DNA from: Methanothrix sp.
GTDB lineage: Archaea > Halobacteriota > Methanosarcinia > Methanotrichales > Methanotrichaceae
NCBI GenBank assembly: GCA_026394505.1
Contig: JAPKYC010000300.1
Span: 1-54,056, forward strand
DNA length: 54,056 nucleotides
Direction of reading: 5' to 3'
How positions within the stretch are numbered: position 1 is the stretch's first letter; each line of letters opens with the position of its first letter. Shown one piece after another: positions 18,176-46,763 of this stretch. The notes beneath the pieces are model-generated. The model worked only from the letters and a program-made list of their open reading frames with translations. It was not told the origin of the DNA and did not search any database. Position numbers and translations under genes: made by a program.

Positions 18176-20479
18176 TCATTCCTTCCGGATGATCCAGAAC
18201 CACATCTCGAAGTCACCACCGCGCTTGCCGTCGCCACTGGGCAGGATGAGATTATTGGACGTCTCGCGGTCAGGCGTTCCAAAGGCCTCTCCATCCAGGT
18301 AGTATCTCCTGGGCGGATTTTCTGACCAAATAAAATTGCCTTTGAGAATCAGACGGGCTAGTAGGCAATCGCCAATCTCATCTTTACGCATCAGATCTAG
18401 CAGCCTATTCAGCCAAGGAATCGTTATATTCGTTGGTTTCCATATGAAGCCATTATCAATAGGCACTATAGAACTATTCAAGACAATTTGCTGGAATCCA
18501 ATTAGTTTATTACCCCATAATTCCCGGTCGACGTTATTTATGGGAAACGGCATATCTATCGTTAAAAAGAATGGCGCTCGGCTTGGCGTTTGCATATTTA
18601 GCTTCTCATTAGAATCGTCTAGGTAAAATAATATTTTTATGCCCTCACGTAGTTCGTCAGGAAACACCGTACCATCATTGAGCAAAGGTCGTTCACCTGG
18701 TACACCTATTGATATCCTGTTGATGCGAATGCGAGGCTCTCCTCTGCATAGATTGGTGATTGCCTCCTGGACGGTCTTTACCCGGGACATGCTTGGACAC
18801 TCCTTTGGATCAAAGGAGACATCAGAGGCTATGCTGAGGTTGGCGTTGAAGAATATGGGCAGACCCAACTGATTATTGTTCTTATCCCTTAATGTGGCAG
18901 TTAATCGTCCCGGTTTTGAAGTTCCCAACGTCCATGTACACCTGGCTATGCCGTCTGGCCCGGTAAACGTATCCGATTTAATGCTATCACCGCTGCTGCC
19001 CTTATCCTCCAGCTCAAACTTGACAGGGGCATTGGCCACCGGCAGTCCTCCATTTGCTACTCCTACCTGAAGCTCTTCTGGGAGTTCGCAGCCAGGCATG
19101 GCCTCCTGGCCATCTCCTCCCACATAAAACATGCTTATCATTCCGGTGAGTGGTGGAAAGACGCGCCGACAATCGATTGTTTTCCCTATTGCCTTTTTCA
19201 ATCGTGGATCAAAGCTCCAATTTATCATAGCCAGCCTGCAATAGTGGTGAATTATGCCCATGGGTGGCGCCTTCACCAGATCATCCACTTTGCCAGTGGT
19301 TGTGCGTGCTGCGAAGACCCAGTAATCACCAGTCTTGAAGTTGCCACCCGAGAATTGAATCCTTATTCCATCCTCCAGCTCCAGGTCTATTGGGGCTGCG
19401 GCAGTGACGAAAATGGCATCGCTCTTCTGGTCCCATCTGCGGACCTTGGGGTGAATATCAATATTCTTCTCTAAGTATTCTGTTTTTCTACTTGCATATT
19501 TTGAAATGTCCTTGCTCAAGATAACAGTCAGAGTTGAATCATCAATATCCTCCTTGACCTCCGCCATGATTCCTGGCTTGCCTGATAACTCATCCACATC
19601 ATCCAGAACTTCGACCCAGTCTCCCTTGTGCAGAGTAAGTATCTGGTCTCTTCCCAGGCGCTTCAGAGAAAATCTATAATAATCATTTGCATCAAACTCA
19701 GAGATGGGAAAGGCAACAGATCCGTTATCTCTTGACCACTTGAATGTGGCCCCGCCTTGTTTTCCTCCCTCATGGATCTCCACCCGGTAAAGGCGGTTTT
19801 CAATGCCAATGTAGCCCCCAGACTGCCCAATCTCACATGGACGCTTGGGATCTTTTGAAGGAACCACATTTACAGTAAGTTGGCCGCCACTGGGTTTTAT
19901 TAGATTATTCCATTTATTACTATCACTATGGCAATCACTGACTTCCGCACCTTCCAGGATCTTCACCTGCCATACAGTTCTTACACGGGTAGTGGTATCC
20001 GGTCCACCCAGCGCCTCCTCTCGGATTTCTGGATCCTCTATTGTGGTGATATGGCGCTGCCACACCTCCAGATACACCAGATCAGTGCGGTTGCCTGTTG
20101 TTGGTGGCTTAATCTTTCGCGGATTCGGACAGTCGGGCTGATTATAATAAGAAATAGGATTTGCTGGATCGTCATCCAGCTCGCAGAGAATGCCATCTAC
20201 ATAAATCCTGCCTGGAGATATTCCCAGATCAGTGATCTTGTCGGGTTTTATTGCATCTTTTTTGGGTGATATCTTAAAGCCGCCCCCCCCTGTTCCATCT
20301 ACATTCTTTGGAACGCCCGAAGAGCCGATGAGGTCTTTAGACTCCTTTTCAATTCGGTTCTGGACGATTTCAGCTTGCTCATTCCAATCGGCATCCAGAT
20401 CGACTCTTCCTTGCTGCCTGAGAACTCTGGTGTAATGTTTCTTGGATTTGTAAGTAAACCTCGTGAAGTCTCCCTTCAT
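18176..20479 (-). CDS. DUF6519 eCIS baseplate/fibre-like protein with an Ig-like domain
   Basis: MKGDFTR...VLRQQGRVDLDADWNEQ, GRIYVDGILCE, ENRLYRVEIH, FKWSRDNGS, GDYWVFAART; Ig-like YVGGDGQ...TGPDGIARCTWTLG. Confidence 0.88.
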   Translation of the reverse strand: MKGDFTRFTYKSKKHYTRVLRQQGRVDLDADWNEQAEIVQNRIEKESKDLIGSSGVPKNVDGTGGGGFKISPKKDAIKPDKITDLGISPGRIYVDGILCELDDDPANPISYYNQPDCPNPRKIKPPTTGNRTDLVYLEVWQRHITTIEDPEIREEALGGPDTTTRVRTVWQVKILEGAEVSDCHSDSNKWNNLIKPSGGQLTVNVVPSKDPKRPCEIGQSGGYIGIENRLYRVEIHEGGKQGGATFKWSRDNGSVAFPISEFDANDYYRFSLKRLGRDQILTLHKGDWVEVLDDVDELSGKPGIMAEVKEDIDDSTLTVILSKDISKYASRKTEYLEKNIDIHPKVRRWDQKSDAIFVTAAAPIDLELEDGIRIQFSGGNFKTGDYWVFAARTTTGKVDDLVKAPPMGIIHHYCRLAMINWSFDPRLKKAIGKTIDCRRVFPPLTGMISMFYVGGDGQEAMPGCELPEELQVGVANGGLPVANAPVKFELEDKGSSGDSIKSDTFTGPDGIARCTWTLGTSKPGRLTATLRDKNNNQLGLPIFFNANLSIASDVSFDPKECPSMSRVKTVQEAITNLCRGEPRIRINRISIGVPGERPLLNDGTVFPDELREGIKILFYLDDSNEKLNMQTPSRAPFFLTIDMPFPINNVDRELWGNKLIGFQQIVLNSSIVPIDNGFIWKPTNITIPWLNRLLDLMRKDEIGDCLLARLILKGNFIWSENPPRRYYLDGEAFGTPDRETSNNLILPSGDGKRGGDFEMWFWIIRKE

Positions 20480-20494
20480 ACTCTTCCTCCAAAA

Positions 20495-23080
20495 TCAAGT
20501 TACGTAAATGATTCCTGCTTCCAAACCAAAGGGCAGATACTCCTCCAGCCTGATGCGCAGATTGGCCTCCCTCTGGGGTTGCAACAGACTGCCAAATGCC
20601 CCCATCTCCGAGCCATCCTCAGCTCCTGTCCTGATCTCCTGTGCGCAGTTCTGGCTGAGCTGGGCATAAGCGGGATTGCCGTAACGAACCGAGGTGAAAG
20701 AAGGCCTCATTCGAGCATAGACAGCCTTTATCTCATCCTCTTTAAGTTCTCCTTTTATCTCTTTAGCCGCGTCCAATGCCATGTCAGGCTGGCAGTGATA
20801 TCGGCGGGGCGTCTTTGAATTCTCCGGAACATAGCTGAAACGGACGCATCCTGCCTGCTGCCTCTCGGAATGCACAATATCTGTAAATATCACGTCGCAA
20901 GCCAGCCTCAACTCTTTAACATGGACCTTGCCAAAGACCGTAACGCGTTCAAGACTTGCTTGTGGGCCTGGTTGATCTTTTCCGCCAGAGACGGTTGCAG
21001 GCTTGGACTGACCGATGGAAGTCGATGCCAAGCTTGACCCTGGGGTATTCAGAAGATCGACGAGTTTCAGCTCCTCGGCAGTCGTCTTATCAGTCTCTGT
21101 GGTCTCAATGGCAACTAAGCTTGGGACTCCAGGCATAATTACTAGGTTGACATCAACTGCATCTACCCGTGTCTTTCTAAAAGCTGGACTGGAGTGTGCC
21201 TCTCTGATGGCAGCCTGAAGGAGGGATCGAGCTTCTTCAATATCAGCCACTATTCTATGCTTGAATTCGGCCAGAAAAGGCCCTTCCTTGCCAATAGTTA
21301 CATTTACTGCTGGTGAATCTGAGCTAATCGTCGGCCAGGGCGAAAGGATTCCAGAGACCAGTGCAACAGGTGGCTTAACGCTGCCTGCGTTGATATTTCC
21401 AGTGATCCCTCCGTCGATGATGCTATCTATCGCCGTAAGCTCCACCATTCCTGAGGGAAGGGCCAGCGATCCCACAATGCTGTGATCGATAAGCAGATGC
21501 AAATTGGTGCATTCATCCTCGACCCTTATGCTCGCCTCATTAGGGCTCTTCGGCTTCCCGTCTTCACGTAGACCTAGCCCTGGAACCAGAGTGCCGTGTA
21601 CGATATTCAAATTTTCCAGGCTGCCCTTGACATGAATAGCTCCTTCTATCAATAATCCATTTAGCGTCAGCTCCGCTCCAGAGTCTGCGGCGATATTGAG
21701 AATGCCGTCGTTCTTAAGCTTAAGGTGCGGCCGTTTTCTATTATCCGCCCTGATGGCCAGCCATTTTTTCTCTGGCAATTTCAGAGATATACTCTCTTCA
21801 TAGGTGGCATTATCTAAGATGGTAATAACGAATTTGCATTTATCATCCTTGGATGCTTTCTCCCATTCCTCTAATGCTTTTTGAAGAGTCTTAAATTGGA
21901 ATTTGCCCAGTCCATATTTAGAGACCAAAATCTCATTTATTTTCTCAGGTTCAATGTCAACATAAAGAGTGTCGTTGATAATATTAATAGAGTCTCTGCG
22001 CTCATAGGGGCCGCCGCCCAGGTCCGCACTGAAGCCATAGTTGTAATAGACCCCTACATCCCCCTTCGGCTCGTCGCCGCATGAAAAAGTGATGCGTCCC
22101 ATCTTTACATCGACCGCGACCTTTTTGCCGTCCGCTGTTATAGATGGTGGCCTGTCCCAGTTGCTCAGGTCCTGGGATACAATAGCTGTCGAAGGCACGC
22201 CCTCTCCATCCTTAACAATGTATAGACTGTGATTGGCTTCATAATAGTCGTCAATTCTGGGGCCGAAGGCCATGGGCCGGATCGGCCCTGGCAGGTTGAT
22301 CTCCCTGGACAGCCCGGCCTCATCAGTCTCTGGCTCATGCTTGTTGAAGATGGGAGCGGTGTTTCCCAGGGGGCTGAAGTGATAACCGTAGGCGTGAGGA
22401 GGTTCAGACTGGCGCGCTTTGATCAAATCATGAGGCTTCCCATCCGAAGGGTCTCCGACGATTCCTACAGGATAGTCTCTGAGCCTCCAGAAGAAGAATC
22501 CTATCTTGCGAATGCCATACCATCCCTCCGTGCGGCCGATACTGCGAACATCCACAGAGTGGCTAATGATATCTAAAGGACTATCTAGGAGATCCAGGGC
22601 ATCAAGATTGCGTAAGTTGACGGTTCCAACCCGGTCCACAGCGCTAGGATCAGAGTCCCCAGGATTTGGTGCTATTTCGTATCGCTGATGGTTGAGGTTC
22701 TGCGTCCAGCCCAAGAGTTCGAAGAAAGGAACAATATGTGCCCCCCAGCCCGTCACATCCCTGGCCATCTCCTCCAGCATGGGAAGCGTGCCCTTTCTCC
22801 TGCGATAGTAGATGGTCTTCGCCACATCAGCCCTGCGCCGAGCGCCTACCTCATGGAGCGGATTGTTGCCCACCAGATCGGCAATATAAGGAATAACCCA
22901 CTCACGACAGGTCTCTATGAAGAAGTCGTCCCAGAGACCGTCTATGTCCTTCTTTATTATATCCGCCTGCTCTGAGATTATATCAAGAAGGCCTTTCAGC
23001 TTATAGCCCTCCTTTTCATCTCTCAGCCGGTAGGCGACCGGCAAGAGTTCGTACAGGTCGATGGCCTTCTTTCGGTTCAT
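20495..23080 (-). CDS. eCIS baseplate wedge / phage tail I-like protein
   Basis: LYELLP..YR.RD, FIETCREWVIPYIADLVG, RRKGTL..LE; C-terminal GCVRFSYVP..S.TPRRY.CQP, YAQL, GSEMGAF, RLEEYLPFG. Confidence 0.82.
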   Translation of the reverse strand: MNRKKAIDLYELLPVAYRLRDEKEGYKLKGLLDIISEQADIIKKDIDGLWDDFFIETCREWVIPYIADLVGNNPLHEVGARRRADVAKTIYYRRRKGTLPMLEEMARDVTGWGAHIVPFFELLGWTQNLNHQRYEIAPNPGDSDPSAVDRVGTVNLRNLDALDLLDSPLDIISHSVDVRSIGRTEGWYGIRKIGFFFWRLRDYPVGIVGDPSDGKPHDLIKARQSEPPHAYGYHFSPLGNTAPIFNKHEPETDEAGLSREINLPGPIRPMAFGPRIDDYYEANHSLYIVKDGEGVPSTAIVSQDLSNWDRPPSITADGKKVAVDVKMGRITFSCGDEPKGDVGVYYNYGFSADLGGGPYERRDSINIINDTLYVDIEPEKINEILVSKYGLGKFQFKTLQKALEEWEKASKDDKCKFVITILDNATYEESISLKLPEKKWLAIRADNRKRPHLKLKNDGILNIAADSGAELTLNGLLIEGAIHVKGSLENLNIVHGTLVPGLGLREDGKPKSPNEASIRVEDECTNLHLLIDHSIVGSLALPSGMVELTAIDSIIDGGITGNINAGSVKPPVALVSGILSPWPTISSDSPAVNVTIGKEGPFLAEFKHRIVADIEEARSLLQAAIREAHSSPAFRKTRVDAVDVNLVIMPGVPSLVAIETTETDKTTAEELKLVDLLNTPGSSLASTSIGQSKPATVSGGKDQPGPQASLERVTVFGKVHVKELRLACDVIFTDIVHSERQQAGCVRFSYVPENSKTPRRYHCQPDMALDAAKEIKGELKEDEIKAVYARMRPSFTSVRYGNPAYAQLSQNCAQEIRTGAEDGSEMGAFGSLLQPQREANLRIRLEEYLPFGLEAGIIYVT

Positions 23081-25587
23081 GGACGTTCCTTCCAAATTCC
23101 CACATCATCTGGTTCAAGATCGATAACAGCTATCTCTTTGGGATAGACGAAGAGATGATCCTGAACCAGATCTGCATTCTCTTTGTCACCCTCTTTATGG
23201 AACTTAACACCGCGACGCTTCAGATCTGTCAGATAATCCCTAAACATGAGCTCAATAATCCTTACTGCTTGCGCTCCCTCTACCTTCTGGAGCAGGGAGT
23301 ATATATCGCTCAAGTGAACAGGCCTTCCGAGGTCTTGATTCTGAAAAGAAAAGTAATCCTTGAGGGATTCTATTGCCTTCATCCTCACTTTTTCTTCATC
23401 ATAATCGACCTTTGCCATTATCTCTGTCACCACCTTTATTTTCACCTCATCGTAATCCTCCACTCTAAGAGCGCGGTTTAAATCCCGACGGGCATTCAAG
23501 TACTCCATAAGAGACTTCTTTGTAGCAGGATCGATCTTTTTATTATCCCCTGCTACAATCAGATTAACCAGCTGTTTCTCTCCATCCCACTTCCGGCTGG
23601 CTCTGGCTTTAGCTACACCAGGATACTCCCTGGCTGCATCCTCAAAGTCCCTGAGAGACACTATGCGCTCGAAAGTGCGAACTGTATTGGGCGCATTGCG
23701 TCTGGCATCCTTCAAAGATTCGGGATCGTCGCCACCTGCCGCATCAGCCGGATTGGTTACACTTTTAAGGCCGACAGGACGGTCGAGAAGGGTAGTGAGT
23801 GTTCTGGGCTTCACATTGCCTTCTCGGCCCAGGCCCTGGCGATAGCTGGCTACAATATTATTGCGACCAGTGGGAAGGCGGGCACCATTTATGCCATCGC
23901 CAAAATGTACAGTCATTTTGCCTTCGGCATCCATCGAGGTGGTGTAGATTCGCTCCTTAGGCTCGCAGCCATAGAAATTCCTTTTCTCGTGCCACTCCAC
24001 TCCATCTACTCTCAACTTCAGGGTGCTGGCAGAACCATGAAGCTTTCCAGAATCCGGAACAAAAGTAACCCGAGGTTTGTTTGGCGAAAAGGATTGGAAA
24101 ATATTGGATGAATCGCCATCGCCCATAATTTCGTTCTTTATTTTTTCGCCGTGAGTCGCTCTTCCAATATTGCCGTAGATACGCACCGTCTCAATCTTAT
24201 ATGTCTTTTTTAGATCATCTTTTAGATCCAAAGAGGTTTGCATTTTTTCACTGTCATTATCGACCCGATCTACCTGAGCTACTTCAATTCCAGGATCGTT
24301 AGAGCCATCAGCCGTTTCTCCTGTCAAGATCAAATTGCGACCTGCTTCCAGATCCGGATAGTACCCGTCTAAAACCAATCTCTTCCCTGCATTCAGATTT
24401 TTGATTCGCGACTCCGCCAGCACTAATGGTTCGCTCTGCGCCATTATGAAAGTCTCTTGCACCGGGAAATAACTGAGATTTTCGCCTTCGACAGTCAACC
24501 TGCTTACCTTGGAGTTGAGCATATACCCAGAATGAGTTGTCTCAATTACGTCTTTGACTTTGTATATCTCCACATATTTTTGATAATCCGTCTTCTTCGG
24601 GTTCGTTGTTATCAGAGCGATCCAGCTCTCCGGACTGATAGTATTATATACACTATCCAGAAAAATATTTTTATCTTCAGACAGCTTGTCATCCTTCCAG
24701 TCGGTTTGAGGCCTTAGATCCGTTGGCATGAAATTCCAATCTGGAGCATTAAACCCAAAGGGCCATGTCTGTAGTCTAAAGACAAATAATTCAGGTAAAG
24801 ATGGTGGCTTTGCATACTTATCGCCAAGTCCCTTTTTCCATTTAATTGTCGTGGTCTTATTTTGTGAATCAACCTGAACATCCGTTATTCTTCGGACATC
24901 CCAATTTTCATTGGCCGGGTCATTACTCCTCTCCTTTCCAACTACCAATATGTAATTTCCCACAGCAATACCATTATTGATACCTTTCACTATAGCTTCA
25001 ACAGAACCCGCTCCCAGGATAAATGGCTCAACTGTATGCAAACGTATCTCGTTTAAGCTGCCAAAAGCCTTTATCGGCACTGAAGTCTCGAACTTCTGAG
25101 GCTTCTCGTTTTGACCGGGAACGCTCTGAATGCGCAGCCCCTCCGGAATCACAACCTCTTTTCCCTTATCCGCAGTGAAGGCAAGCTGGGCAGTAGCAGC
25201 CATTCCCGGTCCTGGCTTGTAGTCCAGGAGCGCCGCCATCTGCAGAACCGACTCAAAATGCAGGGCTGTTCTCAGGAATGCTTCGTTGGCTATGCGCTCC
25301 TGGTAGAAGGTCAGGATGTCTGCCAGATAAGCCCACATCTCTATGAGAGCGATGCTATAGTCGTCACTGCTGCGGGAAGTCAGTTCTTTGAGAAGGTATG
25401 CCTCCCTGCCATCAACCTCGAACTTCAATCCTATGGCATCAATCATCGCCTGGCGGAAGCTGGCATAGGTCCCTACGCGATAGCTTATCGCAGAGATGCC
25501 AGGAAGATTCCTGATCTCTTCAGGGGTAGCAGGAACTGGCGCCTGGCAGCATCCACAGGTATCCCTTGGGATATCTTTTAAGCTCAT
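23077..25587 (-). CDS. Baseplate J-like assembly protein
   Basis: YRVGTYASF, DILTFYQERIANEAFLRTA, LLDYKPGPG, FGDG.NGARLPTG..N..A.YRQGLG..GNV, RIVSLRDFE. Confidence 0.9.
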   Translation of the reverse strand: MSLKDIPRDTCGCCQAPVPATPEEIRNLPGISAISYRVGTYASFRQAMIDAIGLKFEVDGREAYLLKELTSRSSDDYSIALIEMWAYLADILTFYQERIANEAFLRTALHFESVLQMAALLDYKPGPGMAATAQLAFTADKGKEVVIPEGLRIQSVPGQNEKPQKFETSVPIKAFGSLNEIRLHTVEPFILGAGSVEAIVKGINNGIAVGNYILVVGKERSNDPANENWDVRRITDVQVDSQNKTTTIKWKKGLGDKYAKPPSLPELFVFRLQTWPFGFNAPDWNFMPTDLRPQTDWKDDKLSEDKNIFLDSVYNTISPESWIALITTNPKKTDYQKYVEIYKVKDVIETTHSGYMLNSKVSRLTVEGENLSYFPVQETFIMAQSEPLVLAESRIKNLNAGKRLVLDGYYPDLEAGRNLILTGETADGSNDPGIEVAQVDRVDNDSEKMQTSLDLKDDLKKTYKIETVRIYGNIGRATHGEKIKNEIMGDGDSSNIFQSFSPNKPRVTFVPDSGKLHGSASTLKLRVDGVEWHEKRNFYGCEPKERIYTTSMDAEGKMTVHFGDGINGARLPTGRNNIVASYRQGLGREGNVKPRTLTTLLDRPVGLKSVTNPADAAGGDDPESLKDARRNAPNTVRTFERIVSLRDFEDAAREYPGVAKARASRKWDGEKQLVNLIVAGDNKKIDPATKKSLMEYLNARRDLNRALRVEDYDEVKIKVVTEIMAKVDYDEEKVRMKAIESLKDYFSFQNQDLGRPVHLSDIYSLLQKVEGAQAVRIIELMFRDYLTDLKRRGVKFHKEGDKENADLVQDHLFVYPKEIAVIDLEPDDVGIWKERP

Positions 25588-28921: not shown

Positions 28922-28942
28922 TCACCTAAATCCTCCTATTCT

Positions 28943-37054: not shown

Positions 37055-37321
37055 CTAGCGATATTTCTCCAATAGCCCTCTGGCGATGCTTTCAGCCAGG
37101 CTTCTGGCCAGCCCTTCATCATCGTACGCCTGAGCCAATTGTATGGGCGGTACATCCAGTCGAGAGATCTCTTTGCCGACCAGGCCTTCAGGCAGTCTGT
37201 CCTGCGAAAGTCGGCGTTGCAACTCCTGTTCCAAGAGGGAGCCGAATAGTCCTGCTCGATCCGACCTCAGAGCAAATCCCTTGAGGACTATGCGATCGAT
37301 GCTCAAGTTGGTCTCTTGCAT
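37055..37321 (-). CDS. Small conserved eCIS accessory protein
   Basis: L.IDRIVL.G...LEQELQRRL...LARSLAESI; lies between the ATPase and the first DUF4157 gene. Confidence 0.7.
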   Translation of the reverse strand: MQETNLSIDRIVLKGFALRSDRAGLFGSLLEQELQRRLSQDRLPEGLVGKEISRLDVPPIQLAQAYDDEGLARSLAESIARGLLEKYR

Positions 37322-37359
37322 TGATTGTCTCCAGAATAGATCTTCTGTCAAGCCTTTCT

Positions 37360-39510
37360 TCAAGTGCAGTGCTTTCCCAGTTCCGCCTCTGTCACCAGCC
37401 TTCCGATCTTCGCATATTCCCTACGAGCGGCATGCATTATGTGCCCCATGCTTATCGCCGATCCCTCATCAGCAGCCAGGAAGGCTGCATTCAGGCTGAT
37501 GTTCCTGATGTTTCCTCCTGAGATCTCCATCCTGGCGAGCAGGTCATAGTCCAGGCCATCCAGATCTGCCTCCGGCGGAAAGGCCTTCTGCCAGATCATC
37601 AGCCTCCGGGCATAGTCTGGGAGAGGCAGATCGACGAGAAACCGCAGGCGGCGGAGGAATGCCTGGTCGAGAGCCGACTTCCTGTTGGTCGCCAGAATCG
37701 CCAGCCCGCTGTATTCCTCCATTCTCTGCAAGAGATAGTTTACCTCGATGTTCGCATATCTGTCGTGGCTGTCCTTCACCTCGGTGCGCTTGCCAAATAG
37801 CGCGTCGGCCTCGTCGAAGAAGAGCACAGCGCCACTGCTCTCAGCGGCGTCGAATATCCTCTTCAGGTTCTTCTCCGTCTCCCCGATGTACTTGCTCACG
37901 ACGCCTGCAAGGTCAATCCTGTAGAGATCCAGACTGAGATGACGGGCCAAGACCTCTGCAGCCATAGTCTTTCCTGTACCGCTCGGCCCGGAGATGAGGG
38001 CATTGATGCCACGGCCCCGGTTCAACCTCCTCCCAAAGCCCCAGTCATCGTAAACCCGTTGTCTGTTCTCGACCTGAGATGAGATCTCTTGAAGCTGCTG
38101 CAATGCATCAGATGGCAGGACGATATCGTCCCAGCAGGCCACGGGTGAGATCTTCTGGGCCAGATCGTGCATGTTCAATCCAGCCTGCTCCTTACAGGCC
38201 AGCCAGATGTCCTCAGCCTCTGGCACCGTTGCGCCACGGAGTCCGGCCTTCAACCTTGCGGTCTTGGCGGCCCGAACTGTATCATGAGGCCCAAAAGCGA
38301 ACTGCTCTGCTTCCTTTCCGAGAAGGCCGTCCAAGTGTCCGCCTTTGATCTGCAAAGCCTGCTTCCAGAGGTCGAGACGGTCTCCCGCATCAAGTCCTGG
38401 AACCTCGACCGACAGAGTCCCCCTCTCGAAGTGGCGGTGCCTCGTGCTGCCAATTATCATGAAGACCTCCGCCTGCTCAATGAACTCCATGGCTCTGGCC
38501 TCATTCTCCGGGGGGCCGCCATCAGGAAGCTCGATGTAAAATGTCGCTCCGGCGAGGATGCTCTCTCGTTCCAGCAACTGGACCATCTCCTGCAGATCGG
38601 CGCCCAGTGCCGGGAGCCTCGTGGTATCCATGCTGAAGATCTGGATTCCAAGGCGGCTGGAGATCTCAGCGGCCACAGCCCTCCTGCCAGTACCCTTCGC
38701 TCCGACGAGGTTAAGAGATGTGAGACAGCTTTCCCTCACCTCAGATTTCATCCACTGCTCAATGCTCTCCAAAAGGCGAAAATGAGAGTGAGTGAGAGGC
38801 GCAGGCGAAAGAGGCCTAAGCAATCCCAGGAGCTTCTCATCTGGATGGTTGAATCCAAGGATATAATCTGTAACCCTCTCATCCATTCTCAGCGGCTGAA
38901 GCGCCCAAGCCCCGGCTCCGGGATCGAGGACTATCAGGTGGAACCTTCGTAAAGTGGCCCCGGCCATGAGGCTCCTTCGTTCCTCCATCTCGGCCCCTTC
39001 TTCCCCAAAGATCTCCAGGGCCAGGCTGGGTGTTGGGTATTTTCTGTTTAGGTCGTCCTGAATATAGGCGATAAGCCTCTCGAAGGAGGGGTCCATCTCA
39101 TGGGCGAAGGCGAGGAGTAGCACATCCCTCTCGAATGATGTGAGCTGAAAGAGGTCTGCCAGGAGATCGAGGGGCAATTGAATCCCAGCCTCTGTAGCAG
39201 CCTCTCGCGCATCCTCTATACTCATCCCCACTTCAGCGAGGCACTCATCTATTCTGCAGATCTCAGAGCTCTTCTCGTAGAACTCCGCCTCGGCTTTGCA
39301 TCGCTCTGAAAGCAGCCAGTCGAACCTGTCATCGCTTATCACCATCCCTGTATAGCTTTGGAGTGGATCGCTCTTCCACTCATGCCTCAGCCACATAGCC
39401 CGGCGCTGTAACAGGAGCTTCAGCCGCTGCATCTCGCTCTGGATGTAGCCGCGGTTTAGATCTGCCTGGGTACTCTCTTGGGACCTGATCTCTCCCTGGA
39501 GGAAACTCAT
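37360..39510 (-). CDS. eCIS AAA+ ATPase (Afp15/Pvc15-like)
   Basis: N-terminal winged helix, degenerate first AAA (GAKGTGR), GPSGTGKT, VVSKYIGETEKNL, FFDEADALFGKR, DRYAN.EVNYLLQRME. Confidence 0.95.
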   Translation of the reverse strand: MSFLQGEIRSQESTQADLNRGYIQSEMQRLKLLLQRRAMWLRHEWKSDPLQSYTGMVISDDRFDWLLSERCKAEAEFYEKSSEICRIDECLAEVGMSIEDAREAATEAGIQLPLDLLADLFQLTSFERDVLLLAFAHEMDPSFERLIAYIQDDLNRKYPTPSLALEIFGEEGAEMEERRSLMAGATLRRFHLIVLDPGAGAWALQPLRMDERVTDYILGFNHPDEKLLGLLRPLSPAPLTHSHFRLLESIEQWMKSEVRESCLTSLNLVGAKGTGRRAVAAEISSRLGIQIFSMDTTRLPALGADLQEMVQLLERESILAGATFYIELPDGGPPENEARAMEFIEQAEVFMIIGSTRHRHFERGTLSVEVPGLDAGDRLDLWKQALQIKGGHLDGLLGKEAEQFAFGPHDTVRAAKTARLKAGLRGATVPEAEDIWLACKEQAGLNMHDLAQKISPVACWDDIVLPSDALQQLQEISSQVENRQRVYDDWGFGRRLNRGRGINALISGPSGTGKTMAAEVLARHLSLDLYRIDLAGVVSKYIGETEKNLKRIFDAAESSGAVLFFDEADALFGKRTEVKDSHDRYANIEVNYLLQRMEEYSGLAILATNRKSALDQAFLRRLRFLVDLPLPDYARRLMIWQKAFPPEADLDGLDYDLLARMEISGGNIRNISLNAAFLAADEGSAISMGHIMHAARREYAKIGRLVTEAELGKHCT

Positions 39511-39520
39511 TGTCTGCCTC

Positions 39521-40762
39521 TCATGGTATGACCAGGGCGCGCTCAGCCAGACCCTCCACACCATTCACACTAACCCTCACGAAATACTCCCCCATCATCA
39601 GGGAGGCCGGCAGATCGAAGGCTATCTTCTTCGGAGTCTTCGGATCGTATGCAATCGATTGTGTCACTGCATCCCCTATGATGGTCATGCACGCCCCCTC
39701 CTTCTGGGAATCAAAGAGCCTCTCTCCGGTGATCTGCAGCCTTCGCTTGTTAGGGCTGAGGGTGGTTAAAAGGAGGTCATCGATCTTTGGCACCAGCATG
39801 AATACGGCCATATTTGACTGCAGGGCAGAGTGCTCCATAGCGGGCTCTCCCATCATCAGGTCCACGACAACCCTCAGTGTCTTGGGCCCTGGCTGCAGAT
39901 CCTCGTGATCAGGGATGGGGACTAAAATCCGGTCCTCGGGGCCAGTCATGGCCTCGGCCTCAACAGAGCCCAGGAATACCCTTGATCTGGCCGGAAACTT
40001 GCCACCGCAGACGACCAGGGTGTCGCCTATGCCAGCATAAGGAGCCGTCCTCTGCCTGCCAGGATCACCCTTTATAATCACCCTCAATTCCTCTATCCAG
40101 GGCCTCTTAAAGGACGAGGCGTAGATCCTCGGACCACCAGATGGAAGGGCTCCTACAGGAATGGGGAGTCTCTTTGGCCTCTGGCTCTCTATCTGAATAA
40201 CGCTCACTTTGTAGGCCACAGATAGTCGGTAGGGCTTTACGAGCGCCGTCCAGATCTTTATCAGATCCTCAAGGCTCATTGGGTCCGGGTAGATCTTGAC
40301 ATTCTCGAACTGCCCCCGGAGACTGTCATCCAGGATGCTTTTTTGCAGACCTGCGGGCAGATTATTGTGGATCTTGTAGAGCCCCTCGGTTATGAGTGAG
40401 TAGTCGTGAAGAACCCTCATGGCATCTCCCAGGATTGTCTGAGCCTCTGAATCGCTGTCCTCCCCATCACCGAATGCTGTTAGCAGATAGTGCAAGTCGA
40501 GGGAGAGCATGGGAATACCCGATCCCGAAGCCAAGAGCATCTCCTGGTTCTTGAGATGAGGATTCTCAGTGACCCTATACAGAAACAGATTGACCCTTGC
40601 GCCCTCCCCAGCACCGGTCTGAACATCAGGAGGAGCTATCGTTACTGGGACCGCCTCAGCCTCCTTCGCATCCGTCTTCCTGTACTCCATCCTATCAGAG
40701 AGCAGGTTTCGAAGGGTGGCGCTCACCCCATTTAGAACTGTGTAGGTCCTCTGGTTGCCCAT
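39521..40762 (-). CDS. DUF4255 (Afp16/Pvc16-like) tail cap/terminator with C-terminal IPT-like domains
   Basis: VNLFLYRVTEN..L.N, LDLHYLLTAF, LG.AM..LHD, L.KIW, YRLSVAYKVSVIQI. Confidence 0.9.
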   Translation of the reverse strand: MGNQRTYTVLNGVSATLRNLLSDRMEYRKTDAKEAEAVPVTIAPPDVQTGAGEGARVNLFLYRVTENPHLKNQEMLLASGSGIPMLSLDLHYLLTAFGDGEDSDSEAQTILGDAMRVLHDYSLITEGLYKIHNNLPAGLQKSILDDSLRGQFENVKIYPDPMSLEDLIKIWTALVKPYRLSVAYKVSVIQIESQRPKRLPIPVGALPSGGPRIYASSFKRPWIEELRVIIKGDPGRQRTAPYAGIGDTLVVCGGKFPARSRVFLGSVEAEAMTGPEDRILVPIPDHEDLQPGPKTLRVVVDLMMGEPAMEHSALQSNMAVFMLVPKIDDLLLTTLSPNKRRLQITGERLFDSQKEGACMTIIGDAVTQSIAYDPKTPKKIAFDLPASLMMGEYFVRVSVNGVEGLAERALVIP

Positions 40763-40775
40763 GAGACAGACACCC

Positions 40776-41837
40776 CTAATACTCCCAGCTCATGTAGCTC
40801 CTGATCATATCATAACCCTGGAAGCCTGACGGCCGCTGCCCGGAGGGCTGTTTTGGCGGCGGAGCCTCCGCATGAATTTCCAGTGTGCCAATTCTCACAT
40901 GAACTGTGCCGGGCTCTTGAGGTGTGAGCTTCTCAGGAATATTCAATGGATGAATAGGCGATGCAATCTCCGCTGAACTGACCCGACAGGAGCCATCCTC
41001 CTCCAAAAGGTCAGAATGCGTCGGCCTTTGGTGACGCTCCACAGATGCAGCCTTCTCCTGGGCCCCCGACCTTTTATCCCCCTTAACTCCAAAAGCCTGC
41101 TGGTCCTCCTCAGAGGAGACCGTTGGGCGGGCCATCTCGCCGCCAATGTCGCTGGATCCAGCCAGAGGCTTCAGAGATCGGGATTGATCAAGATCTCCCC
41201 TGCCTCTGTGAAGGTCCTGATCTATCGGCAGGACCTTTGCGGGTGCTGGAGACTGCGGCAGGCCATCATCCAGCAGTGCCCTGGACTGCCCAGTGACCGG
41301 GACATGTGCATCATTGCTGGCATTACTAGCGGCATCATCGTATTTGGCCAGCGCATCGCCATCGATGACATAACCTGCTGTGGTTTTTTTGGCATTCATC
41401 GCGCCCTCATCTGTATAATCCCTGGCCCCGATCTCCCCAGTCTCATCCGCCTCAACAGAGGTCGGCTTTGCTGCATTCGCCCACCCTCCGCGAGAGGGCT
41501 CTAGCCATCTCTCGTCCGAACTCGCGCCCTCGGCCTCTCCTGGCGGCCTCTTCATCTCATCAGGCTGGTGGACCTCGGGTGTGCCGGGGCCGCTCTTCGC
41601 GGCCCGGATGATGTAAGTGGGCGCGGATTGGCCATCATTCGCAGCCCCAACAGGCATTTCCTGAGCATCACCCGTCTGAGATGGAGGCGGCTTAGACTGG
41701 TGCCCCGGACCCCTGCCTCCCCCTCTGATCGTGGCCGGCCCTGGCGCGAAATAAGGGATGAACCTAGGGCGAACGGCTAGGGTCTCCAGCCCTGCGGCTC
41801 GCAAGACGAGGGTGTGGATTAAATCTCCTCTAGTCAT
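40776..41837 (-). CDS. Largely disordered eCIS protein
   Basis: P/G/A/D/E-rich middle; short conserved-looking ends (VRPR....FAP; VHVRIGTLEIHAE). Confidence 0.7.
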   Translation of the reverse strand: MTRGDLIHTLVLRAAGLETLAVRPRFIPYFAPGPATIRGGGRGPGHQSKPPPSQTGDAQEMPVGAANDGQSAPTYIIRAAKSGPGTPEVHQPDEMKRPPGEAEGASSDERWLEPSRGGWANAAKPTSVEADETGEIGARDYTDEGAMNAKKTTAGYVIDGDALAKYDDAASNASNDAHVPVTGQSRALLDDGLPQSPAPAKVLPIDQDLHRGRGDLDQSRSLKPLAGSSDIGGEMARPTVSSEEDQQAFGVKGDKRSGAQEKAASVERHQRPTHSDLLEEDGSCRVSSAEIASPIHPLNIPEKLTPQEPGTVHVRIGTLEIHAEAPPPKQPSGQRPSGFQGYDMIRSYMSWEY

Positions 41838-42700
41838 CTCCTCTCCCTCTCCTCCTCGATTAGATCCAGGTATCTCCGCCTTCGTCCTGGCGATAGCCCG
41901 AGGATCTCATGTTCGCTCCAGTGATAATGAATGGCAATTGTGTGGACCTCCCTGTAGATGTGCTCAGACCTCATCGCCAGCTCCTGCGAGAGGTAGCCTG
42001 CTGTGTCGAATATCGTCGAGTACCGGCCATTGCAAAATGGACAGACCAGGTCGAGCCGGAGTTCAGACTGAGGGTCCAGATACGCCATGGCCTGAGAGAT
42101 CAGGCTGGCCAGCCGCGGGGAGATCTTCTCGACCGATCTACCCTCCCCATTGGAGATCTCCAATATGCAGCTACGAAGGAAAAGATCTGCTGCTGCCTCA
42201 TCATCCACGAGGGCCAATCCGGCGGCCGCCTCCTGGTCTGAGCCTGTTGGGAGACGGAAGCGAACTCTCCAGGATTGTCCGCCATCTTCAAAGACCGCCT
42301 CGTGATACCTGAGTTCACAAGGATAAGGGGAAAGGATAAGGCTGCTGGTCGAAAGCTCGATCTCCATAGTCTCGCCACAATCCCTGTTTGGGCAGACAAG
42401 GGTGCACTGCATCCTCTCCCCAAACATCAGCCTTCGCAAGTGGAGGAGCAGAGCTTCGCGGTCACCTGCGCAAAGGGATCGGATAAGATCTTCATCCACA
42501 TCATGCCGAGGCCCAATTCCTGCCAGGCATCTTGCAAGAATGGCAGTCGTCCATTGGGCAGGCAGAAAGCCATTGCCGATCTCATAGAGGAATGCCTCGT
42601 CATCTCCTGGAAGAAGGCGAATCCTAGCCTCCCGGAAGCATTCTCCATCGATCCAGCAGCCGCTCGGAAGAATGACATTCACTTCGTTGCTCATATTCAC
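41834..42700 (-). CDS. T4 gp26-like hub/tail assembly chaperone fused to a DUF6760-like C-terminus
   Basis: LP.G, GDREALLL.LRR..FG, CPNRDC, FRLPTG.DQ, DPQ, CPFC; YREVH.IA.HYHWSE.EIL.L...RRRRY. Confidence 0.8.
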   Translation of the reverse strand: MNMSNEVNVILPSGCWIDGECFREARIRLLPGDDEAFLYEIGNGFLPAQWTTAILARCLAGIGPRHDVDEDLIRSLCAGDREALLLHLRRLMFGERMQCTLVCPNRDCGETMEIELSTSSLILSPYPCELRYHEAVFEDGGQSWRVRFRLPTGSDQEAAAGLALVDDEAAADLFLRSCILEISNGEGRSVEKISPRLASLISQAMAYLDPQSELRLDLVCPFCNGRYSTIFDTAGYLSQELAMRSEHIYREVHTIAIHYHWSEHEILGLSPGRRRRYLDLIEEERERR

Positions 42701-43224
42701 GTCGGAGGCTCATTATAACTTGGCTCTGTGGGCTCTTTCACTTCGTAGTCCCTCTCCCAGCCCTCGTTCTCAAGCTTGATCGTCTCTATAGCCACGGCGT
42801 TGGCGCTGGCATCCAGAGCCGGAAGCGCCTGGTATTCGGAGACCCAGCAGCGAAAGACCTTGTAGGCAAGGACCTTTTGGCCGGCCTCGTTGTATACCTC
42901 TATGATTATGTCTTTGCGAAAATCTTTGAGGGAGACCTCAGAGCCAAGACCTGAGCCGTAGTTCCATACCTTGTTCGCCCACTTCTCAAACTCTGTATCG
43001 TGAGTGATGCCTCGCTCCAGAGTGATAGCATCGTACTTTGTCCTTCCGGGAGACTTCCGGTCACTGCTCGGATCGCCTCCCTCGCGATAGGTAACTGGAT
43101 CGGTCGTCCTCTTTAAAGCACCTACCTTGCTGACTCCCGCCACATATCTTCCTTCCCACTTGACCCTGAACTTGAACGATTTATATGGATCGAACCTCAG
43201 GGGATTGACGCTGAACTGTGCCAT
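42697..43224 (-). CDS. Tail tube protein (T4 gp19-like)
   Basis: RFDPYK.FKFRV, YREGGD, PGRTKY..ITLERG, RKD..I, CWVSEY, VAIE...L.NEGWE. Confidence 0.96.
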   Translation of the reverse strand: MAQFSVNPLRFDPYKSFKFRVKWEGRYVAGVSKVGALKRTTDPVTYREGGDPSSDRKSPGRTKYDAITLERGITHDTEFEKWANKVWNYGSGLGSEVSLKDFRKDIIIEVYNEAGQKVLAYKVFRCWVSEYQALPALDASANAVAIETIKLENEGWERDYEVKEPTEPSYNEPPT

Positions 43225-43233
43225 AAATCCTCC

Positions 43234-46200
43234 TCAAGTCTGAATCTGTCCAGCAATCTGCTGAATCTTGATTATTACAAACTCTGCCGGCTTTAGGGGG
43301 GCGAAGCCAACCAGGATGTTGACAATTCCCTTATCCCTGTCGGTCTGAGTGGTTGTGTCTTTGTCGCATTTGACAAAGTAGGCCTCGCGGGGAGATCCTC
43401 CCTGGAAGGCCCCTTTACAAAAGAGGTCATGCATGAAGGCTCCAACGTTCAGCCTGATCTGGGCCCAGAGCGGCTCGTCGTTCGGCTCAAAGACCACCCA
43501 TTTGAGTGCGCGAAAGAGGCTCTCCTCTATGTAGAGCGCCGTTCTTCGGATGGGGATATACTTCCACTCCGATGTCAGGACATCAGCCCCACGCAGCGTG
43601 CGGGCCCCCCAGACGACAGATCCGATTATCGGGAATGTTCTCAGACAGTTTACCCCCAGAGGATTGAGAAGACCGTTCTCCTTGTCGGTCAGCCTGTAGA
43701 CCAGGGAGTTCACACCTGAGAGGGTTGCATCCTGGCCTGCAGGAGCCTTCCAGACACCCCTCGTTGAGTCAGTCCGGGCGAAGATCCCTGCGATGATCCC
43801 ACAAGGCGGGAACTCTTTTAGCCTGTTCTCCTCCAGGGGATCACTCATAACCACCCGCGGGAAGTAGAGTGCAACGTTCTCTGATCTCAGGGGATCGAAG
43901 GTCCCAAGATCCTCCAGGGCTTTGTCGAAGTTGTTCCATGCCGTGGGGCAGTCGGCTATCAGGAACGCTCGATTCTGTTTGCAGAAGGCTGCGGCCTTGA
44001 CAAGCGTATCGACTTCCTCTGCTTCAGGGAGGCAGAGGAGGTTAAATATATCCACGTCCAGCAGGGCATAAATGCCAGTCTTCTTTGCCTCATTGCCCAC
44101 CAGGTCGATATCTTCAGGCTTTGAGCCATCATTGCCGGGCTTTGCCCCCTTCTGAGCAGCCAGAGTTTTGCCTGTTCCAAGCGTGTAGGACTTGACATTG
44201 GCTATGTTATCACTAAGATGAAGGTCGTTTGCACAGTTGTCGATGACGGCCTTTTGGATGCTCCACAGGGCTCCATCCCACTTGAGAATGGTCCCGAGGT
44301 CGCCAACTATCCAGATATTGCTGCTGTCTATGTATTTTATTCCACAAAAATTGCTATACATGCCCACTGGCAGCGGCTCAGGATCCCATTTCGTCCCTGT
44401 ATCTTTGGTCTTGATTACCGTAGAGTCATCGCCTACAGCCCATCCTTCATTAGCAGCATTGAAATACACACTTCGCAATGCGGAAGTGATGCCTTTTGGC
44501 AGGTTGATTTTATTGGTCGTTAGTTTTCCTAATTGATCATTGACTATGTGCAGAATTGTGGAGTTCTCACCTACAGCCCAGATATCATCTGCAGACCTTG
44601 CATGGATGCCATAGAGATTAAACTCCACACCTTTGAGGGAGAATGTCTCCACTTTTAGCTTCATGTTACTTTCATCAATTGTGAACTTGGCGATGAGGCC
44701 ATTCTCGCCTGCTGCCCATGCCTCATCTGAAACAGCAGAAATCGCCATTAGATTTGCCTTGAAGGTGGTTGGTGTGATGTCTGTTATCTCCACCCAGGTT
44801 TCGCCCTTGTCCTTGCTGTAGATGATCTTATTCTCGCCAACAATCCATCCTTTATTGCCAGAAAAGCTTACACTCCGCAATCCTGCAGCCATATTTGGCA
44901 TCGACTTTTCAGTCCATGTAACTCCTCCACCTGTTATGAGTAGGATCGTTCCCCTCTCACCAACTGCCGTCGCTGTACTTGCGTCAATGGAAGAAACACC
45001 ATAAAGATCCTCTTTAACACCTTCCTTGGATTTGCATGATGACCATTCTTTTCCGCCATCTTCAGTGTAGAGAATCGCTGCCTGTTCACCAACCGCCCAG
45101 CCAATTGTTTGGTTAAAAAATGACACAGCAGCGAGGTTCTTGAGGACCCTGTCGTTCTCTATCTTTATGACAGAGTTCTTATCTTCTGCTCCAGAGAGAA
45201 TCTGGATGGAGCTTCCTAGAATTTTACATGTTGTGCCCATAAAGCATGCAGACCCAGCCTGCTTGGCATTGATAGCCCTTATCTTGCTCTGTAATAACTT
45301 GGCTAGCTCCTCCAGATTATTGGGGAGAAGGTCCTTTCCATCTGCAAAGAGGCTGATACTATGTGGCCCGTCACCATCTATGCTCACTAGTATTTTGTTC
45401 TCTTTTTTGCTGAAAATGTTCTTAAAAACAATGTTGTTCAGATCTCCGCTGAGAGTCCCATTAGGAGCGGGGCGGATATGAGCAGCAGCATCTATTTCCC
45501 TGCCGCCGTTGGCGACTCCCAGGCCCAAGACCCTGGCCGCATCCAGGGTATCTGCGCTTGTGACCCTAACGAATGATTCTATAGATGCATCCCCTGAGGT
45601 GAGGATTAGTTCTCCCATTTTATTAACATCATAAGTGCACGTAAAATCTATGTAAGCTGGTGTCTTACCTAGTTTCTTCACTTCATTCTCAATGAGACCC
45701 CTCAGCTCATCCGGAGTCTTAGGCTTATTGATATCGTTCCCATCGTAGATCTTTACAGTTCTGGGTCCGTCATTCTCATTGAGGATTATCATGAACTGCA
45801 GGCAACCCTTGTTAAGTTTGGATAGATTAACAGGCGAGCCGCTGATGCTCTGGCCGTTTTTCTTAGCGACACTGTCGAAGGCCGCTTTTTTAATCTCAAC
45901 ATCTATTATATTTGAGGCACTCTTGAGGACATTTTCAGCGCTCCGCTTGGAGAGAGGATTCATGGAAAGGCCTATGTAGAACTCAGATCTGCCCGTGATC
46001 ATATCTTGAATACTTAGATTAAATGTGCTCTGAGGATGGGCCGTCATGTAGTCCACCGTGATCGTTATTCCATTAGCCCACTCACCGGGGTCCTTTGCAA
46101 AAACATCCAGGACATCAGAGCCTGCCAAGCTTTTAAGGGTAATTCTGGCCTCTGAAGCAGTGTTTTTCTCAGTTACACGAACAACAATCGCCCTTTCCCC

Positions 46201-46431
46201 GCCGTTCAAAAAAAATTGTTGTACAGCGTAGCTGAGCGGGCTATCCCTTGATAGTCCGCCGAATTTGCGCTCGAAGTCCGCGAAACTCAGCACGTCCTGG
46301 GCCTTGTTCAGAGGCCCCATCTTCGTGTAGCCCACAAAGGCCGTTACCGATGTGCTGACGCCCATAATGGTTCGAACACCGCTGGGGATCTCTTCAATAT
46401 ATACTCCTGGATATGTCAATTGTGCCGGCAT
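43234..46431 (-). CDS. Contractile tail sheath protein with large insertions (two related modules plus a 7-blade beta-propeller)
   Basis: TYPGVYIEE, FFLNGG, ALYFP, RGVWKAPAG, LNPLGVNCLR, WGARTL, WKYIPIRR, VFEPN, GFAPLKPAEFV. Confidence 0.96.
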   Translation of the reverse strand: MPAQLTYPGVYIEEIPSGVRTIMGVSTSVTAFVGYTKMGPLNKAQDVLSFADFERKFGGLSRDSPLSYAVQQFFLNGGERAIVVRVTEKNTASEARITLKSLAGSDVLDVFAKDPGEWANGITITVDYMTAHPQSTFNLSIQDMITGRSEFYIGLSMNPLSKRSAENVLKSASNIIDVEIKKAAFDSVAKKNGQSISGSPVNLSKLNKGCLQFMIILNENDGPRTVKIYDGNDINKPKTPDELRGLIENEVKKLGKTPAYIDFTCTYDVNKMGELILTSGDASIESFVRVTSADTLDAARVLGLGVANGGREIDAAAHIRPAPNGTLSGDLNNIVFKNIFSKKENKILVSIDGDGPHSISLFADGKDLLPNNLEELAKLLQSKIRAINAKQAGSACFMGTTCKILGSSIQILSGAEDKNSVIKIENDRVLKNLAAVSFFNQTIGWAVGEQAAILYTEDGGKEWSSCKSKEGVKEDLYGVSSIDASTATAVGERGTILLITGGGVTWTEKSMPNMAAGLRSVSFSGNKGWIVGENKIIYSKDKGETWVEITDITPTTFKANLMAISAVSDEAWAAGENGLIAKFTIDESNMKLKVETFSLKGVEFNLYGIHARSADDIWAVGENSTILHIVNDQLGKLTTNKINLPKGITSALRSVYFNAANEGWAVGDDSTVIKTKDTGTKWDPEPLPVGMYSNFCGIKYIDSSNIWIVGDLGTILKWDGALWSIQKAVIDNCANDLHLSDNIANVKSYTLGTGKTLAAQKGAKPGNDGSKPEDIDLVGNEAKKTGIYALLDVDIFNLLCLPEAEEVDTLVKAAAFCKQNRAFLIADCPTAWNNFDKALEDLGTFDPLRSENVALYFPRVVMSDPLEENRLKEFPPCGIIAGIFARTDSTRGVWKAPAGQDATLSGVNSLVYRLTDKENGLLNPLGVNCLRTFPIIGSVVWGARTLRGADVLTSEWKYIPIRRTALYIEESLFRALKWVVFEPNDEPLWAQIRLNVGAFMHDLFCKGAFQGGSPREAYFVKCDKDTTTQTDRDKGIVNILVGFAPLKPAEFVIIKIQQIAGQIQT

Positions 46432-46763
46432 TAATATTCGCCTCTTTTCATCATAATCTTTCGAAATGCTGTAACCAAGATCTCACCATCAGAAAGCTTC
46501 CCATCTGATTTAATTCCGTCAACCTCAATTAGAAATCTCTCGATAGCTTCGTAATCCATTTTCTTAATCTCTGCAAACTTCATTGCAGTAATCTTCAATT
46601 CCTTCTTGGAAGAATACCTCTTAGGCATCTTTCCCTCTAAAGAATCGAAAATAAGCCCACAATTCCTGTGCCCAATTGTCGAAGTCGAAGGATTTGCAGA
46701 TGGTTTGATATATGCTTTAAATGTGCAACCTTCAACGAACTCGCCACATTCACATAGAATCAT
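46431..46763 (-). CDS. Small Cys/His protein, first gene of the eCIS operon
   Basis: MILCECG...IGHRNCG; GGAGGGG RBS; stop overlaps the sheath ATG (TAATG). Confidence 0.75.
   Translation of the reverse strand: MILCECGEFVEGCTFKAYIKPSANPSTSTIGHRNCGLIFDSLEGKMPKRYSSKKELKITAMKFAEIKKMDYEAIERFLIEVDGIKSDGKLSDGEILVTAFRKIMMKRGEY

Follow-up and report, generated by a model that had tools for sequence, protein, structure and literature searches.

The stretch of DNA analysed here (the window) comprises 54,056 nucleotides (nt) of a Methanothrix sp. contig, JAPKYC010000300.1, and contains an operon for an extracellular contractile injection system (eCIS). The operon is made up of 22 stop-free open reading frames (ORFs), all on the minus strand, running from position 46763 to position 18176 over approximately 28.6 kb, with intergenic gaps of −44 to +114 nt (Table 1). 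Matches to Pfam and NCBIfam profiles identified a sheath, a gp19-type tube, a T4_baseplate/DUF6760 protein, a Pvc16 cap, an ATPase with a winged-helix domain (WHD) and an AAA module, three eCIS_core (DUF4157) proteins, a CIS_tube protein, a LysM protein, a GPD hub, a Phage_base_V spike, gp25, two baseplate-J proteins (TIGR02243), a weakly matching TIGR02242 protein and a DUF6519 protein. The Afp/PVC-like eCIS core of tube, sheath, hub/spike, gp25, baseplate J, Pvc16 cap and Afp15 ATPase is present in full within this one cluster. No Pfam or NCBIfam match to capsid, portal, terminase or type VI secretion system (T6SS) membrane-complex genes was found among the 22 genes; a weak terminase-small-subunit match (E = 0.006, below cut-off) lies 7 kb from the operon, beside an IS1 fragment.

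Archaeal housekeeping genes lie on either side of the operon, McrA is present in the host genome, and both operon ends are bridged by contigs of a second sequencing run from the same study as the possible source run; misassembly of the locus is unlikely. The operon is a real, unbroken eCIS-type contractile injection system (CIS) in a methanogen chromosome, and its open frames, profile content and McrA bear out an earlier note on this DNA, made from the sequence alone, which had described an intact eCIS operon in a methanogen. That note also took the host to have no peptidoglycan, which is consistent with the lack of Mur ligase and penicillin-binding protein matches in the host genome (78% complete, the scope of all genome-wide absences given here). 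The three DUF4157 proteins, termed cargo 1 to cargo 3, all carry HExxH and are the only DUF4157 matches in the host genome; as the note had it, their C-termini differ, the three being mutually unrelated.

Table 1 Features of the injection system operon and its leader, in order of transcription
Feature	Position in window	Strand	Basis
Kink-turn-like RNA hairpin, 47 nt upstream of first gene	46812..46839	-	
110-aa Zn-finger-like protein (CECG...HxxC + helices), no known family, first operon gene	46431..46763	-	
Sheath, 1065 aa, inserted YCF48/BNR beta-propeller-like region	43234..46431	-	Pfam/NCBIfam
Tube, T4 gp19-like, Afp1/5	42697..43224	-	Pfam/NCBIfam
T4_baseplate/DUF6760 protein, likely assembly chaperone	41834..42700	-	Pfam
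353-aa low-complexity protein, no family	40776..41837	-	
Cap / tail terminator (Pvc16_N)	39521..40762	-	Pfam
Afp15-like WHD+AAA ATPase	37360..39564	-	Pfam + tree
102-aa conserved gene, no family, between ATPase and cargo slot	37055..37363	-	
Cargo 3: DUF4157 + YkuD L,D-transpeptidase-fold tip (His366, Cys380)	35687..37054	-	Pfam, fold model
Cargo 2: DUF4157 + Tgl-like cysteine enzyme tip (Cys368, His481)	33782..35572	-	Pfam
CxxCxxCC protein inside cargo slot	33169..33798	-	
Cargo 1: DUF4157 + unnamed His/Cys-rich beta-barrel domain (GHFCIHF)	31771..33114	-	
Afp7-like tube initiator (CIS_tube)	31083..31760	-	Pfam
Small LysM-type baseplate gene	30794..31069	-	Weak matches, below cut-offs
Baseplate hub (Phage_GPD)	29689..30768	-	Pfam/NCBIfam
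Spike (Phage_base_V), HxH tip at end, no PAAR gene after	28943..29665	-	Pfam
169-aa gene, no family, between spike and gp25	28412..28921	-	
gp25 baseplate wedge	28020..28394	-	Pfam
Baseplate J-like 1	25584..28010	-	Pfam/NCBIfam
Baseplate J-like 2	23077..25587	-	Pfam/NCBIfam
Tail protein, likely Tail_P2_I-type fibre adaptor	20495..23095	-	Weak, TIGR02242 E=0.001
DUF6519 (eBAP5) tail fibre	18176..20479	-	E=5e-62

Cargo proteins

The tip of cargo 3 matches Pfam YkuD above the cut-off (E = 1e-6), and its predicted model, with a predicted local distance difference test score (pLDDT) of 64.7, resembles L,D-transpeptidases. The top ten Foldseek rows contain only chains of the L,D-transpeptidase family (L,D-transpeptidases and L,D-carboxypeptidases), as do all 50 rows shown by a second structure comparison (Z 9.7–12.7, with a root-mean-square deviation of 2.9 Å over 106 residues at Z 12.7). 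The features of the YkuD superfamily, namely the fold, the catalytic His and the S/T-x-G-C motif, were all found; His366 and the Cys380 of SHGC are invariant in 14/14 cargo 3-type sequences, all of them DUF4157 fusions, and the 13 relatives recovered among 35 candidates are every one DUF4157–YkuD. Cargo 3 is, from its model, a credible peptidoglycan-type enzyme at the level of fold, and the sole cargo for which this can be demonstrated. In the comparison with Tlde1, Tlde1_dom gave no match in cargo 3 at E ≤ 0.01, the His–Cys spacing is 14 as against 10, and Tlde1a is not among the structure rows shown. The T6SS effector Tlde1/Tae5 (PMC9638812; bioRxiv 2020.02.18.954545) likewise uses the L,D-transpeptidase fold as an injected anti-bacterial enzyme, whereas cargo 3 scores as YkuD (PF03734) rather than Tlde1_dom, is fused to DUF4157 and has no immunity gene: no small immunity-like gene follows either putative wall-directed cargo (cargo 3 or cargo 1).

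Among 301 Methanosarcinia genomes, YkuD matches occur in four: the host, G374, G406 and G035. In three of these the match is a DUF4157 fusion within a CIS locus, with DUF4157, PG_binding_1 and YkuD in one chain in G374 and a DUF4157–YkuD gene directly after the CIS ATPase in G406. The fourth, a LysM–YkuD-type gene with a response regulator next to it, sits on a short contig (L209, G035:C110) and is likely bacterial contamination of the bin. A metagenome motif scan returned one short contig with tandem DUF4157 genes.

The tip of cargo 1 has no Pfam match. Its profile recovered 923 relatives among 1477 candidates of 72–286 residues, with invariant columns that include seven His (among them H40, H104, H132, H136, H143 and H152), C134, D23 and D42. 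Fusions to PG_binding_1, LysM or SH3 occur in 15 of the 120 relatives listed, and 17/18 listed rows naming a taxon are Bacillota. The model is a small β-barrel (pLDDT 88) for which Foldseek gave no match at E ≤ 0.001 and the best Z score was 6.6, to PilZ-like barrels; such a missing match is no proof of a new fold. Reading cargo 1 as a divergent member of the L,D-transpeptidases, or as another known enzyme, found no support: comparisons by PDB profile and with Foldseek, VIA and Atlas gave nothing significant, and the fold is not YkuD-like. A wall-related role is plausible, by association with the fusion partners only. The cargo 1 domain also occurs in a further DUF4157 protein, P0016, where the tail behind it seems, on visual inspection, to resemble lysozyme.

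Cargo 2 matches Pfam TGL above the cut-off (E = 6.5e-8) and the NCBIfam equivalog far below it. In an alignment with Bacillus subtilis Tgl (4P8I; E = 0.87 for the alignment alone), its Cys368 and His481 correspond to residues 116 and 200, which we take to be catalytic. Two proteobacterial loci hold DUF4157 cargoes that are closely related to it (44% and 33%). By sequence, cargo 2 is a Tgl-like cysteine enzyme, with nothing linking it to peptidoglycan. The nearest tested analogue is EAT14 of Chitinophaga rupis (Danov 2024, PMC11297309), which also joins DUF4157 to a transglutaminase-like tip and is toxic from the cytoplasm in Escherichia coli and yeast in a Cys/His-dependent manner; EAT14 belongs to Transglut_prok (PF09017), whereas cargo 2 belongs to TGL (PF20085). 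The CxxCxxCC gene was considered as the cognate immunity gene of this cargo and rejected: its two homologues in the fetched set come from loci where TGL gave no match, and it was not found beside the two closest Tgl cargoes (downstream cover 0.7–1 kb).

To the earlier note, two of the three cargoes appeared to act on peptidoglycan. The YkuD fold of cargo 3 and, circumstantially, the fusion partners of cargo 1 speak for this, and nothing does so for the Tgl-like cargo 2; the count was overstated, because cargo 3 alone is demonstrably of peptidoglycan type.

Structural components

The operon resembles the eBAP5/Tail_P2_I type of eCIS (PMC8213781; PMC12923769) in its tube, sheath, hub, spike, gp25, baseplate J, cap, ATPase and DUF4157 cargo, and in the DUF6519 fibre behind the tail adaptor. 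DUF6519 is the fibre anchor of eBAP5 (PMC12923769), and here the DUF6519 fibre gene likewise lies downstream of the weakly assigned adaptor. Unlike that type, the present operon is archaeal and has a PAAR-less, HxH-tipped spike, a propeller insert in the sheath and a leader module. PAAR (PF05488) is absent from the operon and the host genome, with no room for such a gene between spike and gp25. An HxH end was found in 1/43 spike homologues of the fetched loci (G108), most of the others ending in a GALxV-type tail. HxH tips of P2-type spikes bind iron. Among the loci checked, only G108 shares the arrangement of a PAAR-less HxH-tipped spike followed by a small gene without a family (window 28412–29665; L192:16773–17790).

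The tube is 79–86% identical to tubes from many bacterial phyla. The propeller-like insert of the sheath (approximately residues 440–720) is unmatched in the other fetched loci and elsewhere in the host genome. The best solved match of the sheath is 9EZM, which appears to be a haloarchaeal sheath, followed by 8BKY/8BL4, presumably the Streptomyces CIS sheath. A particle acting inside its producer as in Streptomyces, whether for regulated cell death or to remodel filaments, would fit these second-best matches, an ATPase that adjoins an actinobacterial one in the ATPase tree, and an operon in which no gene for a holin or lysin was seen. We consider it very improbable, given the fibre gene, a wall-directed cargo with no substrate in the host and the absence from the operon of a transmembrane CisA-like protein (CisA from PMC12237407); a hydropathy scan of the 22 operon proteins revealed no convincing transmembrane segment or multi-pass protein.

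Distribution and cargo turnover

The commonness of CISs in this family and class was overlooked in the earlier note, as was the leader module described below. DUF4157 is present in 40/105 Methanotrichaceae genomes and the Pvc16 cap in 38/105; across the class Methanosarcinia, Pvc16 is found in 90/301. Gene order is kept across the family loci, with a variable cargo slot between the ATPase and Afp7. A second architecture in the family (L188–L189, L191, L195, L198, L202–L204) has a short cap gene first, several tube genes and sometimes two sheaths, and the two architectures co-occur in several genomes.

An island that is silent, of recent acquisition or in decay, and that serves no function at present, would account for this patchy distribution and for frameshifted copies in relatives, such as G009 (L036–L037), in which several structural and cargo genes are frameshifted and which is likely a decaying copy. 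For the window operon we rate such a fate lowest among the alternatives: 22/22 frames are open, the strain variant of the fibre gene is an in-frame 3-nt insertion, a CIS adjoins the same deacetylase gene in the relatives G108 and G019, and the archaeal leader module is conserved across families.

Loci were fetched around most, not all, family DUF4157 matches, giving 111 distinct ORFs, from which 11 with short or broken tails were dropped to leave 100 tips. The tips are hypervariable: together with the three of the window, the resulting 103 form 97 clusters. At E ≤ 0.003, 20/100 family tips have a Pfam match and 80/100 have none. Eleven of the matches are peptidoglycan-related (M23+M15, NlpC/P60, Hydrolase_2, Tlde1, OmpA and PG_binding_1), several of the 11 lying below curated cut-offs, and the others are nucleases or peptidases; Ntox44, EndoU and contact-dependent inhibition (CDI) nuclease tips are included. 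In the window, the three cargo tips are lower in GC than their carriers (0.43/0.44/0.47 versus 0.58/0.50/0.61). This nuclease content, and a turnover like that of polymorphic toxins, speak against a particle that manipulates or tethers syntrophic partners without killing them, by wall softening for contact or electron transfer. Such a role has been proposed for CISs of anaerobic methanotrophic archaea (ANME) (PMC9012536; bioRxiv 2024.05.23.595608), and the propeller insert of the sheath could be adhesive; here we regard it as improbable.

Leader module

The RNA hairpin upstream of the operon lies beyond the range covered by the earlier note. A strict kink-turn (k-turn) pattern matched 26/49 upstream regions and 1/49 on the opposite strand, compared with a mean of 0.8 and a maximum of 3 in shuffles (n = 30); in the 20 regions from other families, which were fetched after the pattern had been noticed, it matched 15. 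At the sequence level, 26/49 leaders follow the k-turn rules (PMC6298567) of a C-stem, a 3-nt bulge, tandem G:A/A:G pairs and C:G at −1b:−1n. Among these 26, GA occupies 2n/1n in 25, the bulge ends in U in all 26 and it reads GAU in 14. Pair changes that keep the pairing occur in the inner stem (C–G to A–U in two rows) and the outer stem (G–C, G–U and A–U), a covariation that is not independent of the pattern selection, of which pairing was part. In five complete genomes a looser pattern gave 14 matches, versus 0 for the reversed control. The leader was the sole match in G350 and G469; in G058, two of three matches precede its two copies of the 110-aa gene. G019 has five matches, the leader not being among them. 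The hairpin has no Rfam match.

In the hairpin, the 3-nt bulge, the tandem G:A pairs and the C:G at −1b:−1n, the leader is like the L7Ae-bound k-turns of 5′ untranslated regions (PMC6298567; PMC5539422). It differs from them in heading a CIS operon and in lying 42–147 nt before the start codon across leaders, a distance at which it would not simply cover the ribosome site. From these sequence features we infer a standard k-turn that would bind L7Ae and have a regulatory role.

The 110-aa protein has no match in Pfam, NCBIfam, PHROGs, PDB sequences or the Atlas. Homologues were found in 79/90 Pvc16-positive and 17/211 Pvc16-negative Methanosarcinia genomes (related genomes not being independent), and the gene lies within 12 kb of the cap gene in 36/44 genomes outside the family that have both. 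It accompanies two different CIS architectures, the second architecture of the family likewise carrying it. Searches of 78 bacterial CIS loci, five whole bacterial genomes and two genomes of another family of the phylum did not find it. The protein is likely a regulator or assembly factor. An orphan second copy (G000:C128:3012–3320) lies beside a transposase-like gene, away from CIS genes. The leader module has so far been found in archaea only, and was not found in print by literature searches that included contractile injection with L7Ae.

Proposed function and targets

The operon encodes a set of proteins that would assemble, once expressed, into a complete contractile injection particle. 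By analogy with haloarchaeal and bacterial systems, the particle likely loads the three DUF4157-tagged proteins; it would be released free, bind through the DUF6519 fibre and likely fire its cargo into other cells, including bacteria. In Halogeometricum, secretion of DUF4157 proteins depends on the CIS (PMC11566945). The predicted effect of the tip with the YkuD fold is to cleave peptidoglycan stems or to link them wrongly, its activity probably being that of an L,D-carboxypeptidase or transpeptidase, as in the T6SS effector Tlde1. Cells of any type could be hit by the Tgl-like tip, whose substrates would be proteins, and a mixed arsenal is likely. The L7Ae-type k-turn and the 110-aa protein are envisaged to control the operon. 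Because cargo 3 combines a wall-enzyme fold with catalytic residues, neighbouring bacteria are likely to be at least part of the target. That the system fires DUF4157 cargo into other cells, bacteria included, and serves an anti-bacterial use is the reading we favour, with modest confidence. The archaeon-to-bacterium weapon of the earlier note stands as a reasonable suggestion, strengthened by the two further methanogen DUF4157–YkuD fusions in CIS loci and weakened by the cargo mix that bacterial eCISs share.

Several results weigh against a bacterial target. In 79 tips from 53 bacterial eCIS loci (flanks cut at 10 kb), 19 have a Pfam match and seven are peptidoglycan-related, so that such tips are not enriched in archaea (11/100 versus 7/79, p = 0.80), nor are catalytic peptidoglycan tips taken alone (5/100 versus 1/79, p = 0.23); given the equal share, the archaeal tips may be passengers from bacterial donors. 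PG_binding_1 occurs in 58/301 Methanosarcinia genomes, with DUF4157 in 1/30 fetched PG_binding_1 loci; being common outside CIS cargo, such domains are no proof of a bacterial target, and PG_binding_1 was ruled out as a CIS-specific marker in methanogens. The ATPase tree (FastTree, 88 rows) requires seven changes of label between archaea and bacteria, at least four of which well-supported branches make unavoidable. Of the solved sheaths, the best match appears haloarchaeal, and the shown targets of that CIS are archaea. The cargo 3 model is of middling confidence, and its His–Cys spacing of 14 departs from the printed consensus.

In the same tree the window ATPase groups with those of G108 and G028, and a single vertical origin of the family CISs is unsupported. 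The Tlde1-like tip of a family genome (L024:718–1503) is 55% identical to a cargo of an Anaerolineaceae metagenome-assembled genome (L076:11880–12707), a likeness that suggests, at the sequence level, cargo exchange between co-occurring groups. From the cargo turnover and the ATPase tree, the system looks like a polymorphic-toxin platform repeatedly exchanged with bacteria. A conserved protein of approximately 310 residues with PG_binding_1 (loci L219–L242) is present in 32/40 genomes of one methanogen genus, unlinked to DUF4157.

Exchange of this kind, the equal cargo mix and share, the Anaerolineaceae-like tip and the 80 tips without a Pfam match would also be expected if the target were other archaea or kin, reached in a T6SS-like manner or by free particles, with the peptidoglycan-type tips as short-lived passengers from a shared bacterial DUF4157 pool. 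The archaeal CIS of Halogeometricum borinquense (Zachs 2024, PMC11566945), a T6SS that kills archaea, is a precedent, with DUF4157 cargoes and with the sheath 9EZM, probably the closest solved one. That system has a six-helix membrane anchor, toxin–immunity pairs and archaeal prey, whereas the operon here has no membrane protein and a peptidoglycan-type cargo. Within the operon, the range scanned, no gene for such an anchor (like the multi-pass Hbor_38620) was found. Intact DUF4157–YkuD fusions with their catalytic residues are, moreover, kept in three separate methanogen lineages, and we consider an exclusively archaeal target unlikely, if the most serious of the alternatives.

More broadly, and only tentatively, Methanosarcinia may have domesticated bacterial eCISs as cross-domain weapons: approximately a third of species would carry them, drawing on a shared DUF4157 pool that includes peptidoglycan enzymes, with one archaeal control module (L7Ae-type k-turn and Zn-finger protein) set over unrelated, repeatedly acquired operons. 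A DUF4157-fused peptidoglycan-type enzyme in a peptidoglycan-free host offers a direct, cheap test of whether an archaeal CIS targets bacteria. Methanotrichaceae are major acetate-using methane producers, and antagonism to neighbouring bacteria, if true, would matter for the ecology of digesters and sediments. The conserved leader provides a handle on the switching of these systems and a marker for archaeal CIS loci.

Relation to published systems and neighbouring regions

CIS loci, also termed phage-like protein-translocation structures, are known from genomes of Methanomethylovorans, Methanosarcina and ANME (PMC9012536; bioRxiv 2024.05.23.595608; Danov 2024 Dataset EV4, PMC11297309), one Methanothrix sheath is listed in PMC9230969, and methanogen CISs were called unexplored in PMC11566945. 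Dataset EV4 contains one Methanothrix row for DUF4157–Ntox44, with a DUF4157–PG_binding_1 neighbour. It places DUF4157–YkuD among predicted Bacteroidetes effectors, and the YkuD cargo sets the present operon apart, as none of the 15 YkuD places in that dataset is archaeal. Methanogen CISs, DUF4157 toxins and bacterial DUF4157–YkuD are thus already in print, and archaeal DUF4157–YkuD was not found in the literature searches. Nor did these return a paper on a methanogen CIS with a tested cargo or on the present leader, and supplementary tables (PMC8213781, PMC12923769) and dbeCIS may list loci. Bacteria-directed wall enzymes of archaea are also known as peptidoglycan hydrolases (Strock 2025, PMC12352652), of which those without a signal are somewhat enriched in sheath-bearing archaeal genomes (P = 0.059); CIS targeting of bacteria by archaea is described there as untested. 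The main text of that paper contains none of the terms 'transpeptidase', 'DUF4157' and 'Methanothrix', and the supplements searched contain no Methanothrix or eCIS_core.

Elsewhere in the host bin, two partial McrA copies (G000:C163 and C190; L134, L137) are 98% identical, and a strain mixture is possible. To the left of the operon (window 10836–13998), a ribosomal-protein region is interrupted by an IS1-like fragment, a Cas4/PD-(D/E)XK nuclease gene and a beta-propeller gene.

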